A stretch of 64,000 bases of DNA, from contig JAWUWM010000050.1 of the NCBI GenBank assembly GCA_034111845.1, positions 3,562 to 67,561 of the forward strand, read 5' to 3'. Both the position numbers and the translations under genes were made by a program. The DNA is from Psychroserpens sp. (GTDB lineage Bacteria; Bacteroidota; Bacteroidia; Flavobacteriales; Flavobacteriaceae). Below the pieces are notes generated by a model. The model saw only the letters and a program-made list of their open reading frames with translations, was not told where the DNA came from and made no database searches. Positions 34,381 to 35,433 of this stretch are shown here, in pieces (position 1 is the stretch's first letter; each line of letters begins with the position of its first letter).

Positions 34381-35433
34381 TTACGAAATCTCTTGTAATT
34401 TCTGGAGATCTAAAACTTTAATATTTCTTCCTTCCATTTCAATAAGACCCTGTTTTTTAAAATCAGATATGGTTCTAATTAATGTTTCAGTAGCTATACC
34501 AGCAACACTAGCCAGATCATTTCGTGAAATTCTGATAGGATCGTTTGGATTTGAATTTATTTTTTCAGCAAATCTTAAAATAGTAGAAGCGGTTTTCTTT
34601 TGTACCGAGCTGTATGCCATTTGTAGGAGTTGATCTTTTACGCCGGTGAGATCATCAGTTAATAATTGAATAACCTCTAAAGTCACTTTATGATTATTAT
34701 TTAGTATCTCTTTAAGTTCTGTTTTAGAAACACCAACCATTTCTAAATCTTTAATAGCTGCAGCTGTTTCACGATAAGGGATGTTTTGTATAAAGGACGT
34801 GTAGCCAAAAAGGTCATCTTCCTTATGTAGTGCTGTAGTAAGTTCCTTGCCTTTTTCATCAAATTTATAGCACTTTACAGCACCTTTGGTTATTAAATAG
34901 ATGAAATTAGAATTATGCCCTTCTTTATAAATAGTATCATTCTTTTTGTAGTTGAAAATGGTGCCATTATCATCAAAGAAGTTTTTTAAATCATTTAAAG
35001 TTCTTAGTTGTTCTTCGTCATTAGAAGTAGAATTAGTAAAGGTTTCCCGCTCATCTTTTAAGATAGAAGCTTTGGCAATTCTACTTTCAATCGCACTAAT
35101 GATTTCATCTTCGCTAAAAGGCTTAGTAATGTAATCATCTGCGCCTAGATCCATACCTTTTCTTATATCTCGACGTTCCGTTTTTGCAGACAAAAATATA
35201 AAAGGAATAAACTTTGTTTCTTTATGTTTAGATAAGCCTTCAAGTACACCATAGCCATCAATAATAGGCATCATAATATCACAAACCACAATATCAGGTT
35301 TATGTTTTGTAGCTATTTCAAGTCCTATTTGCCCATTGCTAGCTGTTAGTACTTCATAGTTAGAAAGCTCTAAGAGCTCAGCAGTATTTTCTCTCAATAC
35401 TGTATCATCTTCAATCAAAAGTACTTTTGTCAT
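34381..35433 (-). CDS. Response regulator: receiver + cNMP-like domain + CRP/FNR HTH
   Basis: LIEDD, CDIMMP (D52), FLSAK, YITKPF; then IYKEG..GAVK..FGY and HTH SRNDLASVAGIATETLIRTISDF. Confidence 0.92.
   Translation of the reverse strand: MTKVLLIEDDTVLRENTAELLELSNYEVLTASNGQIGLEIATKHKPDIVVCDIMMPIIDGYGVLEGLSKHKETKFIPFIFLSAKTERRDIRKGMDLGADDYITKPFSEDEIISAIESRIAKASILKDERETFTNSTSNDEEQLRTLNDLKNFFDDNGTIFNYKKNDTIYKEGHNSNFIYLITKGAVKCYKFDEKGKELTTALHKEDDLFGYTSFIQNIPYRETAAAIKDLEMVGVSKTELKEILNNNHKVTLEVIQLLTDDLTGVKDQLLQMAYSSVQKKTASTILRFAEKINSNPNDPIRISRNDLASVAGIATETLIRTISDFKKQGLIEMEGRNIKVLDLQKLQEIS

Follow-up and report, generated by a model that had tools for sequence, protein, structure and literature searches.

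A receiver-CRP/FNR hybrid regulator and its FixL-like haem kinase probably switch on about 18 stress and dormancy promoters in a Psychroserpens genome

Which protein reads the TGAT-N4-ATCA box that recurs ahead of stress genes in this Psychroserpens genome, and by what signal is that protein switched? An earlier note on the window (here the whole stretch of 64,000 nucleotides that was analysed) proposed a gene product encoded at 34381-35433 as the likely reader and described it as a FixJ-FixK cascade in one protein. The box itself is real: TGAT-N4-ATCA occurs 24 times in the window, whereas shuffled sequences average 2.46 occurrences and never exceed 7. The window has 3.75 boxes per 10 kb and the genome as a whole 0.55, and 10 of the 13 strict box promoters of the genome lie on this contig. 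About 18 boxes of the form (A/C)TGAT-N4-ATCAT are found at a fixed position before stress genes in the window. The intergenic boxes are located 57-64 bp ahead of the ATG, with a -7 element (TAnnTTTG in Bacteroidota) 22-23 nt downstream and a weak -33-like TTT beside them. The boxes to which the text refers, none of them assigned to a strand, are the following.

22429-22440: box 62 bp upstream of the USP gene 22496-23332
25144-25155: box 76 bp upstream of the Hsp20 gene (24625-25074)
29238-29249: box 61 bp upstream of an operon for a USP, a 135-aa protein, an ATP-cone protein and a beta-CASP RNase
31927-31938: box 63 bp upstream of a three-gene tandem-USP array (29255-31870), conserved in related loci
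32454-32465: box 62 bp upstream of hpf (32096-32398)
33029-33040: box with a -7 element and no protein gene downstream, a candidate non-coding RNA promoter
34346-34357: variant box TGACGAATATCA (reverse complement TGATATTCGTCA), 57 bp upstream of the USP gene 33453-34295
37409-37420: box between the kinase operon and a divergent 136-aa/DUF302/thioredoxin operon, 61 bp to ATG 37475 and 105 bp to the kinase ATG
38742-38753: box 64 bp upstream of an operon for a WG-repeat protein, an M50-CBS protease and a MacAB-like transporter
50353-50364: box 60 bp upstream of the operon 50418-52293 (including a PNPOx-like protein)
56791-56802: box 62 bp upstream of the CBS-pair gene (56331-56735), facing a divergent phasin-like/ABC1 kinase operon
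59746-59757: box 62 bp upstream of the 200-aa gene 59088-59690
59891-59902: box 60 bp upstream of the MgtC/DUF4010 gene 59956-61257
63970-63981: box 59 bp upstream of a MlaE-MlaF-MlaD-like operon (61300-63917)

The proposed reader, which we refer to as the fusion, joins a receiver domain to a CRP-type module, and its gene overlaps that of a histidine kinase. The features of the two genes are listed below.

34381-35433, minus strand: fusion gene, encoding a 350-aa REC-cNMP-like-HTH_Crp hybrid response regulator (intact ORF, Pfam)
35086-35424, minus strand: receiver domain, residues 4-116, with E8-D9-D10, D52, S82, Y101 and K104 (Pfam, residue check)
34693-34953, minus strand: cNMP-binding-like beta-roll, residues 161-247, lacking the cAMP-contact Glu and Arg (Pfam, HMMER alignment)
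34387-34593, minus strand: CRP-type winged HTH, residues 281-349 (Pfam, Foldseek)
34474-34494, minus strand: recognition helix core A314-T-E316-T-L-I-R320 (residue check)
35430-37310, minus strand: cognate soluble histidine kinase of 626 aa with a FixL-type haem PAS (H64, R84), LOV (C179), a third PAS, HisKA (H411) and HATPase (domain searches, residue check)

All three domains of the fusion scored above their Pfam cut-offs: Response_reg with 98.3 bits (cut-off 30.2, profile positions 1-111), cNMP_binding with 61 bits (cut-off 27.5) and HTH_Crp_2 with 54 bits (cut-off 27); the Crp model gave 23 bits. A scripted check found D52, S82, K104, E316 and R320 and the helix GIATETLIRT. The phospho-acceptor set is complete, with D52, S82 and K104 next to the acidic pocket E8-D9-D10. 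The earlier description of an intact receiver followed by a cNMP-like domain and a CRP-type HTH with the helix ATETLIR is thus borne out by the ORF, the Pfam matches and the residue check. Among 44 fusion orthologues (40-90% identity), E8, D9, K104, E316 and R320 are invariant and D52 is found in at least 90%; in one orthologue (L059) the phospho-acceptor is replaced by Asn. The orthologues also share the beta-roll residues G195-K196-E197, T200, Y220 and E222.

An FNR-type N-terminal Cys cluster is absent from the 350 residues, in which the only Cys are at 51 and 188, as had been stated. In a HMMER alignment to cAMP-bound M. tuberculosis CRP the positions of the cAMP-contact Glu and Arg are occupied by Y211 and Y220, and across the fusion family these columns hold Tyr, Phe or Gln (Glu position) and Tyr (Arg position). 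The residues therefore agree with the earlier proposal that neither an Fe-S cluster nor a cAMP site is involved. Binding of cNMP by the fusion was rejected on the residues of the phosphate-binding cassette. E316 and R320, spaced four residues apart like the Glu and Arg with which CRP/FNR proteins read the TGA core, align with the RETVNK helix of M. tuberculosis CRP.

No LuxR/GerE-type four-helix HTH, as in FixJ/NarL, was detected in the fusion by a Pfam scan. The NCBIfam model for FixJ matches the fusion through the receiver alone (residues 3-128), and the best NCBIfam matches of the receiver are OmpR/PhoB-like rather than NarL/FixJ-like. The FixK, CRP and FNR models score about equally on the fusion (67-70 bits, far under their own cut-offs). 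A Foldseek search matched CAP, FixK2 and FNR structures with E values of about 1e-17 (2e-17 for T. thermophilus CAP), and CRP was matched as well. The AF2 model of the monomer shows the (beta-alpha)5 pattern of a receiver with pLDDT >90 for residues 1-50, a helix at 248-292 (dimerisation), the HTH at 304-327 and the wing at 331-340; its pTM is 0.40, the linker 132-141 is disordered and the inter-domain arrangement is not given by the model. By its domain content and predicted fold, the fusion is a two-component response regulator that carries a whole FNR/FixK-type CRP-family protein (beta-roll, dimerisation helix and HTH) as its output.

The kinase stop and the fusion start share four nucleotides. 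The translational coupling that had been suggested stands as far as the overlap is concerned; its letters are ATGA (..CAATTATGACAAA..) and not ATAA. H411 was found in the H-box of the kinase by the scripted check, as predicted. In the PDB, the first PAS domain (PAS1) is matched best by haem domains of FixL and by DosP (E about 3e-14), and H64 and R84 align with the proximal His and distal Arg of FixL. PAS1 is the sole sensor domain common to all orthologous kinases, and the LOV domain is, judged from the domain comparison, a lineage-specific insert. We infer putative haem binding by PAS1 and putative FMN binding by LOV. The kinase adjoins the fusion in almost all of 40 loci (41-90% identity), and one genome of the same genus (G066) lacks both genes.

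The pair resembles FixL-FixJ-FixK of rhizobia and Caulobacter in the FixL-type haem-PAS of the kinase, which has counterparts of the proximal His and distal Arg, and in a final output that is a CRP/FNR-family activator without Cys cluster, with TGAT-N4-ATCA-type boxes and low-oxygen or stress targets, which are predicted here. It differs from that system in lacking FixJ; the FixK-like module carries the receiver itself, and therefore no transcriptional relay step would be needed. The receiver is of the OmpR/PhoB-like and not the NarL/FixJ-like type, the kinase is soluble and in this strain has an extra LOV domain, and the box flanks are A/C..T instead of TTGAT..ATCAA. With FNR of E. coli and Aliivibrio fischeri the fusion shares its fold, but it has a receiver at the N-terminus in place of the Cys cluster, and the trigger would therefore be phosphorylation by an external haem sensor and not an intrinsic [4Fe-4S] cluster. 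CRP is similar in the beta-roll and winged HTH, the E-x3-R helix and the Pfam/NCBIfam and structural matches, and is different in that the fusion has Tyr at both the cAMP-contact Glu and Arg, Thr at the first Arg of RETVGR and an added receiver.

The DNA-binding module of the fusion forms one clade with the flavobacterial FNR-like paralogue, apart from other flavobacterial CRP-family paralogues. The FNR-like protein has an N-terminal C-x2-C motif and the helix GTATESAIR (ATESAIR), nearly that of the fusion, the pattern common to both being ATE[ST]xIR, and it is associated with the same box and promoter geometry. The earlier argument that the recognition helix singles out the fusion does not hold, as the near-identical FNR-like helix is tied to the same box. 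Because of this tie, the non-FNR flanks of the box would be a lineage trait of the FNR box of this family. The idea of a FixJ-FixK cascade in one protein is right in that a receiver-CRP/FNR hybrid exists together with a FixL-like kinase; however, at least eight genera keep a separate FNR-like gene in a kinase-fusion-USP-FNR-like cluster. The FNR-like gene follows the USP gene by 40-55 bp, without a box of its own, in eight genera.

Box and regulator co-occur across the family, which was the check that the earlier note had called for. Full-length fusion orthologues are present in 136 of 300 genera of Flavobacteriaceae. Counted with one strict pattern, and in a comparison that ignores the kinship of genera, the mean number of box promoters is 2.1 where both regulators are missing (n=52), 6.1 with the FNR-like protein only (n=112), 7.5 with the fusion only (n=56) and 11.8 with both (n=80), an additive rise with each regulator. 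The boxes cluster beside the fusion gene in five genomes (G293, G050, G052, G037 and G138). In genomes G199 (24 box promoters) and G138 (nine) no CRP-family protein other than the fusion has an E-x3-R helix. An exclusive association of the box with fusion-bearing genomes was rejected: 17 fusion-less genomes have at least ten box promoters, and those with an FNR-like gene show the same box in the same promoter geometry. By this distribution, the fusion has no box of its own but shares the family's general FNR box with the Fe-S FNR-like paralogue.

In the present genome the FNR-like orthologue is a pseudogene (47% identity) with four in-frame stops and without the N-terminal 62 residues, and no further CRP-type gene is present within the 64-kb window. 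Another CRP/FNR protein that could account for activation, which the earlier note had regarded as evidence against the fusion, thus exists in many relatives, but here that paralogue is dead. Given the dead FNR-like gene, and two fusion-only genomes in which no second CRP-family protein has an E-x3-R helix, we rank the fusion first among the candidate readers of the box in this genome and consider this role likely. The earlier designation of the fusion as box reader can be kept in this form; the box is not private to it.

Three other readings of these data were weighed. Activation at the island boxes could be due to another CRP/FNR protein, with the fusion having different or few targets, and two candidates are available. 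An intact 232-aa CRP-family paralogue on contig C97 (helix AKESVVR) keeps E-x3-R, and a perfect TTGATATTTATCAA site there, with a -7 element just downstream, precedes a thioredoxin-like gene. An intact copy of the FNR-like protein, tied to the same box in relatives, could lie in the unassembled 16%, because the genome is 84% complete. The C97 type, however, is present in just 10 of 300 genera; it was rejected as family-wide box reader and cannot explain a conserved island, and the island boxes avoid the TTGAT..ATCAA flanks of the C97 site. Second FNR-like copies occur in 3 of 192 FNR-positive genomes, the copy found here is decayed, and fusion-only genomes without another E-x3-R protein still have many box promoters. 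We regard activation by another protein as unlikely. It is also conceivable that the fusion controls a first tier only, namely the variant box and through it the USP gene and, in many genera, the FNR-like gene, the perfect boxes being an FNR-like regulon that is orphaned and decaying here. The one-mismatch variant box (TGACnAATATCA / TGATATTGGTCA) next to the fusion is indeed kept in 18 of 18 other loci checked, and the position of the box-less FNR-like gene behind the USP gene fits such a hierarchy. This two-tier arrangement is nevertheless very unlikely in view of the box promoters of fusion-only genomes, which exceed the background more than threefold on average, of G199 and G138, and of the window itself, where most boxes still precede intact genes at exact spacing; the nearly identical helices of the fusion and the FNR-like protein also lead us to expect shared sites.

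The remaining reading accepts binding of the fusion to the boxes and questions its mode of action: it might be a repressor or anti-activator, be constitutive, or respond to a ligand of the beta-roll. The conserved beta-roll residues, the Asn in orthologue L059 and the AF2 model without a domain arrangement would be compatible with this. The canonical cNMP contacts are missing, however, the phospho-acceptor set is otherwise kept in the 44 sequences with a kinase almost always adjacent, and the box is at the position of a class II activator, with the weak -33-like TTT and 22-23 nt to the -7 element, and we consider such a mode highly improbable. A phospho-switched regulator of the FNR/FixK type with its haem kinase and box regulon is, in our judgement, the likely explanation as a whole, and the fusion and the FixL-like haem kinase probably switch on the about 18 stress and dormancy promoters.

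The phospho-switch would work as follows. Like FixL, the kinase would be active when its haem is in the deoxy form at low oxygen, and the inserted LOV domain of this strain would let blue light modulate it. D52 of the fusion would be phosphorylated by the kinase, and the phosphorylated receiver would drive or release the active dimer, in the role that the [4Fe-4S] cluster has in FNR. The dimer would occupy the boxes about 41.5 bp upstream of the start site, as estimated from the box, the 22-23 nt spacing and the -7 element, and from there activate transcription in the class II manner. As the FNR-like gene is dead in this genome, the fusion would be the main reader here. The predicted regulon comprises tandem USPs, Hsp20, HPF, the CBS-pair protein, the thioredoxin operon, the M50 protease, Mla, the MgtC-like protein, the RNase and the candidate sRNA, and judged by these gene products it looks like a hypoxia or dormancy programme.

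DosS/DosT-DosR (DevR) of Mycobacterium tuberculosis likewise combines a haem sensor kinase with a response regulator. DosR has a NarL/LuxR-type output, and DosS and DosT are GAF-haem sensors. The DosR operator is unrelated to the box described here, and the resemblance is functional, not homologous. The DosR regulon is rich in tandem USPs, alpha-crystallin/Hsp20, ribosome-hibernation and CBS-domain proteins (PMC5069765), and the content of the predicted regulon is similar.

The fusion architecture is widespread in Bacteroidota, with about 1,759 clusters at 50% identity, and the database annotation of the family is 'response regulator' only. Full-text literature searches found no study of the receiver-CRP regulator or of this box in Flavobacteriaceae, and structure searches found no solved structure spanning both the receiver and the CRP/FNR halves. 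The response-regulator censuses of Galperin reportedly list rare REC-CRP combinations without functional data. We tentatively propose, with somewhat less than even confidence, that REC-CRP/FNR hybrids are an unstudied phylum-wide class in aerobic Bacteroidota, in which the Fe-S or cNMP switch gives way to aspartyl phosphorylation by a FixL-type haem kinase, haem and Fe-S sensing are combined on one operator through the FNR-like paralogue, a DosR-like dormancy regulon is controlled and, in this sea-ice strain, light perceived by LOV is a third input. Flavobacteriaceae and other aerobic Bacteroidota play a large part in breaking down marine organic matter; they live on particles and in the brine of sea ice, habitats with rapid changes in oxygen and light. 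The gene pair offers a concrete candidate switch for low-oxygen sensing and for the entry into a protected low-activity state, consisting of one kinase, one regulator, one operator of fixed geometry and a compact regulon (USPs, Hsp20, HPF). If the proposal is true, the fused receiver domain would be a new way of controlling a CRP/FNR dimer, and the fusion and its paralogue would provide an example from nature of one operator shared by regulators with different sensors.

The promoter geometry at the 37409 box does not show that the kinase-fusion operon regulates itself: towards the kinase, the closest -7-like element is at a distance of about 48 nt, compared to 22-23 nt at the other boxes. The box fits the divergent 37475 gene, and it is kept in 11 of 12 related loci.

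The gene at the centre of this analysis is an intact open reading frame whose product, referred to here as the fusion, joins a receiver to a cNMP-like domain and a CRP-type HTH domain. Its position and that of neighbouring features in the window are as follows.

Features of the kinase-fusion locus (window coordinates)
34346-34357: variant box between the fusion gene and a universal stress protein (USP) gene
34381..35433, minus strand: fusion gene, 350 aa; Response_reg (residues 4-116, Pfam, 98 bits), cNMP_binding (residues 161-247, Pfam, 61 bits) and HTH_Crp_2 (residues 281-349, Pfam, 54 bits, with a short Crp signature as well)
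35430..37310: upstream kinase gene; three PAS domains, HisKA (H411) and HATPase (Pfam)
36534-36911: LOV insert of the kinase, residues ~134-259

The Pfam matches and a residue script agree with the earlier note on the domains, on D52, S82 and K104 of the receiver, on the recognition helix (GIATETLIRT, with E316 and R320) and on the absence of an N-terminal Cys cluster, the only two cysteines being at positions 51 and 188. The four bases shared by the fusion start codon and the kinase stop are ATGA, and not ATAA as had been read. The best profile matches of the receiver are OmpR/PhoB-type receivers. In the AF2 model (pLDDT 79, pTM 0.40) the last receiver helix extends to residue 134, the linker 132-141 is disordered, and the CRP-like module matches CAP, FixK2, FNR, GlxR and NtcA (E about 1e-15 to 1e-17); a PDB search did not find an entry spanning both halves. 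In an HMMER alignment with cAMP-bound M. tuberculosis CRP, Y211 and Y220 replace the ribose-binding Glu and the phosphate-binding Arg, respectively, so that a canonical site for cNMP is missing.

The palindrome TGAT-N4-ATCA (the box) occurs 24 times in the window, compared with 2.46 times on average and 7 at most in shuffled sequences, which corresponds to 3.75 per 10 kb versus 0.55 genome-wide. Nineteen copies are intergenic, and in about 14 of these the box centre lies 57-64 bp from the next ATG. Alignment from the gene side gave a common layout of the box, usually TTT, 22-23 nt and then TAnnTTT(G), the -7 promoter element of Bacteroidota. With this layout, the likely start site would be about 41-42 bp downstream of the box centre, the spacing of class II CRP/FNR activators. 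Of 38 half-site flanks, 35 are A or C and three are T (hand count), so that the site reads (A/C)TGAT-N4-ATCA(T/G) and not the enterobacterial TTGAT-N4-ATCAA. The content of the genes linked to boxes (window 22400-64000) resembles the mycobacterial DosR dormancy regulon, the regulators being unrelated.

Genes behind boxes
Seven tandem-domain USPs, Hsp20, HPF and a CBS-pair protein
DUF302/thioredoxin operon
M50-CBS protease and MacAB-like transporter
MgtC/DUF4010 protein; MlaEFD
PNPOx-like protein
ATP-cone protein and beta-CASP RNase operon

The genome holding the window (G000; 3.3 Mb, 116 contigs, 84% complete) contains a handful of CRP-family genes, of which the fusion is the sole one within the window. 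The paralogues on contigs C89 (SRQTVSN), C15 and C52 have a recognition helix without E-x3-R. The orthologue of the Cys-bearing FNR-type paralogue of Flavobacteriaceae (FNR-like) is a pseudogene outside the window (C110:25939-26470; locus L003:1456-2081), with four in-frame stops; residues 63-225 alone can be aligned, the N-terminal ~62 residues including the Cys motif being gone, and identity is 47%. In G066, a genome of the same genus, the gene is intact and identity is 75%. The pseudogene adjoins a ccoI/fixI-like P-type ATPase gene; 62 bp upstream of the latter lies a perfect box, TGATAAATATCA. With FNR-like inactivated and the contig of the fusion carrying 10 of the 13 strict box promoters of G000, the fusion is the best candidate for the protein that reads the boxes in this genome. 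G066 is the reverse: it is without kinase and fusion, has an intact FNR-like gene and has four strict box promoters. The paralogue on contig C97 (C97:16215-16941, locus L002) is intact, with helix AKESVVR. Behind it lies a perfect TTGATATTTATCAA site that has a -7 element and precedes a thioredoxin-like/ApbE-like gene pair by 65 bp; this may be a separate small regulon, with flanks of the enterobacterial type.

The earlier note had regarded the fusion as the likely reader of the box, arguing that its helix had lost both the CRP-specific Arg and the FNR-specific Ser. The first part stands for G000, as described, but the box is not private to the fusion. The helices of the fusion (IATETLIR or TATETAIR) and of FNR-like (TATESAIR) are nearly identical, and FNR-like has lost both residues too, so their loss is a lineage trait of the FNR-type regulators of the family and not a mark of the fusion. 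The box is probably the ordinary FNR box of the family, common to the two regulators. In a maximum-likelihood tree of CRP modules, fusions and FNR-like proteins group together (94/82), apart from other flavobacterial paralogues, and are separated from each other by a supported split (97/92).

To compare regulators and box promoters across the family, one genome for each of 300 genera was analyzed. A full-length fusion was found in 136 genera, FNR-like (225 aa, N-terminus MGKCEQC.., helix GTATESAIR) in 192 and a C97-type paralogue in 10. Box promoters were counted in the same genomes with the strict pattern TGATN4ATCA-N22/23-TANNTTT; the reversed-pattern control gave mostly 0-2 per strand.

Mean number of box promoters per genome, by regulator content
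Neither regulator (52 genomes): 2.1
FNR-like only (112 genomes): 6.1
Fusion only (56 genomes): 7.5
Fusion and FNR-like (80 genomes): 11.8

Fusion and box thus co-occur (7.5 in fusion-only genomes versus 2.1 with neither regulator), and the effects of the two regulators on the count are roughly additive, the comparison being an association across non-independent genera with one strict pattern. None of the genomes with neither regulator reaches 10 box promoters. Genome size does not explain the difference, since the 21 'neither' genomes of at least 2.5 Mb average about 2 (hand count). Where sites were listed, box promoters cluster beside the fusion gene in five genomes (G293, G050, G052, G037 and G138). 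All CRP-type HTH proteins were enumerated in five fusion-only genomes; in G199 and G138, with 24 and 9 box promoters, the fusion has the sole E-x3-R helix and the other CRP-type proteins have TSRVVxSR or TTRAVxNR.

Comparison of 12 named loci (Psychroserpens luteus, P. burtonensis, other Psychroserpens, Psychroflexus aurantiacus, Winogradskyella, Algibacter, Kordia and strain ALC-1) showed that the order (136-aa gene)<-[box]->kinase-fusion-[variant box]-USP-membrane protein-[box]-USP array is kept in most. The site between fusion and USP (L030-L041, L068-L075) is always a one-mismatch variant, TGACnAATATCA (reverse complement TGATATTGGTCA), with the usual -7 element; it is present in 19 of 19 loci checked, window included, and never as a perfect palindrome, which suggests that this operator is weaker by design or tuned differently. 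Next to distant orthologues (41-55% identity) the kinase is found in nearly all cases and a box directly after the gene in about half. In at least eight genera (L068-L075) a co-directional kinase-fusion-USP-FNR-like cluster occurs, in which the FNR-like gene is preceded by 40-55 bp with no box and may therefore be co-transcribed from the variant-box promoter. In these genera the fusion may thus also drive FNR-like expression, as a true FixJ-to-FixK-like relay.

A script found no long hydrophobic stretch in the kinase sequence. Among solved structures, PAS1 is closest to FixL haem domains and DosP (E about 3e-14), and H64 and R84 align with the proximal His and the distal Arg, respectively. PAS2 is a LOV domain (NCRFLQ, C179; YtvA family match). 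Orthologous kinases range from 407 to 626 aa, and PAS1 is the sole sensor domain common to all, so oxygen or a different ligand of the haem is the most likely core signal, light being a local addition. Among 10 aligned orthologous kinases, the LOV domain is shared only with the kinase of an uncultured Psychroserpens, and a 626-aa orthologue in G209 probably contains it as well. The kinases of the closest named species measure 500 aa and lack LOV, and those of several genera, at 407-414 aa, have no sensor domain besides the haem-PAS. The organism looks to be from sea ice, because the DNA is recovered almost complete from ice metagenomes (five studies) and seawater metagenomes (one study), one of which may be the source sample. 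For window 31000-38600 these metagenomes contain near-identical DNA (share 0.8-0.94 of words), and no RNA run matches.

In FixL, low oxygen gives deoxy haem and an active kinase. By analogy, low oxygen would activate the present kinase through its deoxy haem, phosphorylation of D52 would favour the active, dimeric form of the FNR-type module, and this dimer, on boxes at about -41.5, would recruit RNA polymerase. The receiver occupies the position of the Fe-S-binding extension of FNR, and OmpR/PhoB-type receivers, which it matches best, dimerise on phosphorylation; we infer from this that phospho-driven dimerisation replaces cluster-driven dimerisation.

Residues E8, D9, K104, R118, G195, K196, T200, E316 and R320 are invariant in 44 orthologues (40-90% identity), and D52 is kept in at least 90% of them. 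At E <= 1e-30 the fusion is matched by 1,759 clusters (50% identity), the best 150 of which are nearly all full length. In a phylum-wide sample 59 of 400 genomes gave a match, again nearly all full length; the matches are spread over several further families of the class, and the largest family sampled gave 0 of 87. Database annotation is 'response regulator' only, and our literature search found no paper on such a receiver-CRP/FNR regulator or on the box in Flavobacteriaceae. This two-component regulator with CRP/FNR output is widespread and unstudied; new here are the two-by-two comparison with the FNR-like paralogue, the helix and operator common to both, the dead FNR-like gene in G000, the LOV domain as an insert and the conserved variant box.

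One orthologue (L059:1913-2968, in G018) has Asn in place of the phospho-acceptor Asp (CNIMMS) and may be an aspartate-less receiver variant; the 1.9 kb between the contig start and this gene, on its upstream side, showed no kinase match. A second, deeper REC-CRP hybrid clade (41-45% identity, helix GTATETAIRT; L050-L057, in seven genomes) is found in the same genomes as the first. Its adjacent box is often missing, and its members adjoin larger multi-PAS kinases.
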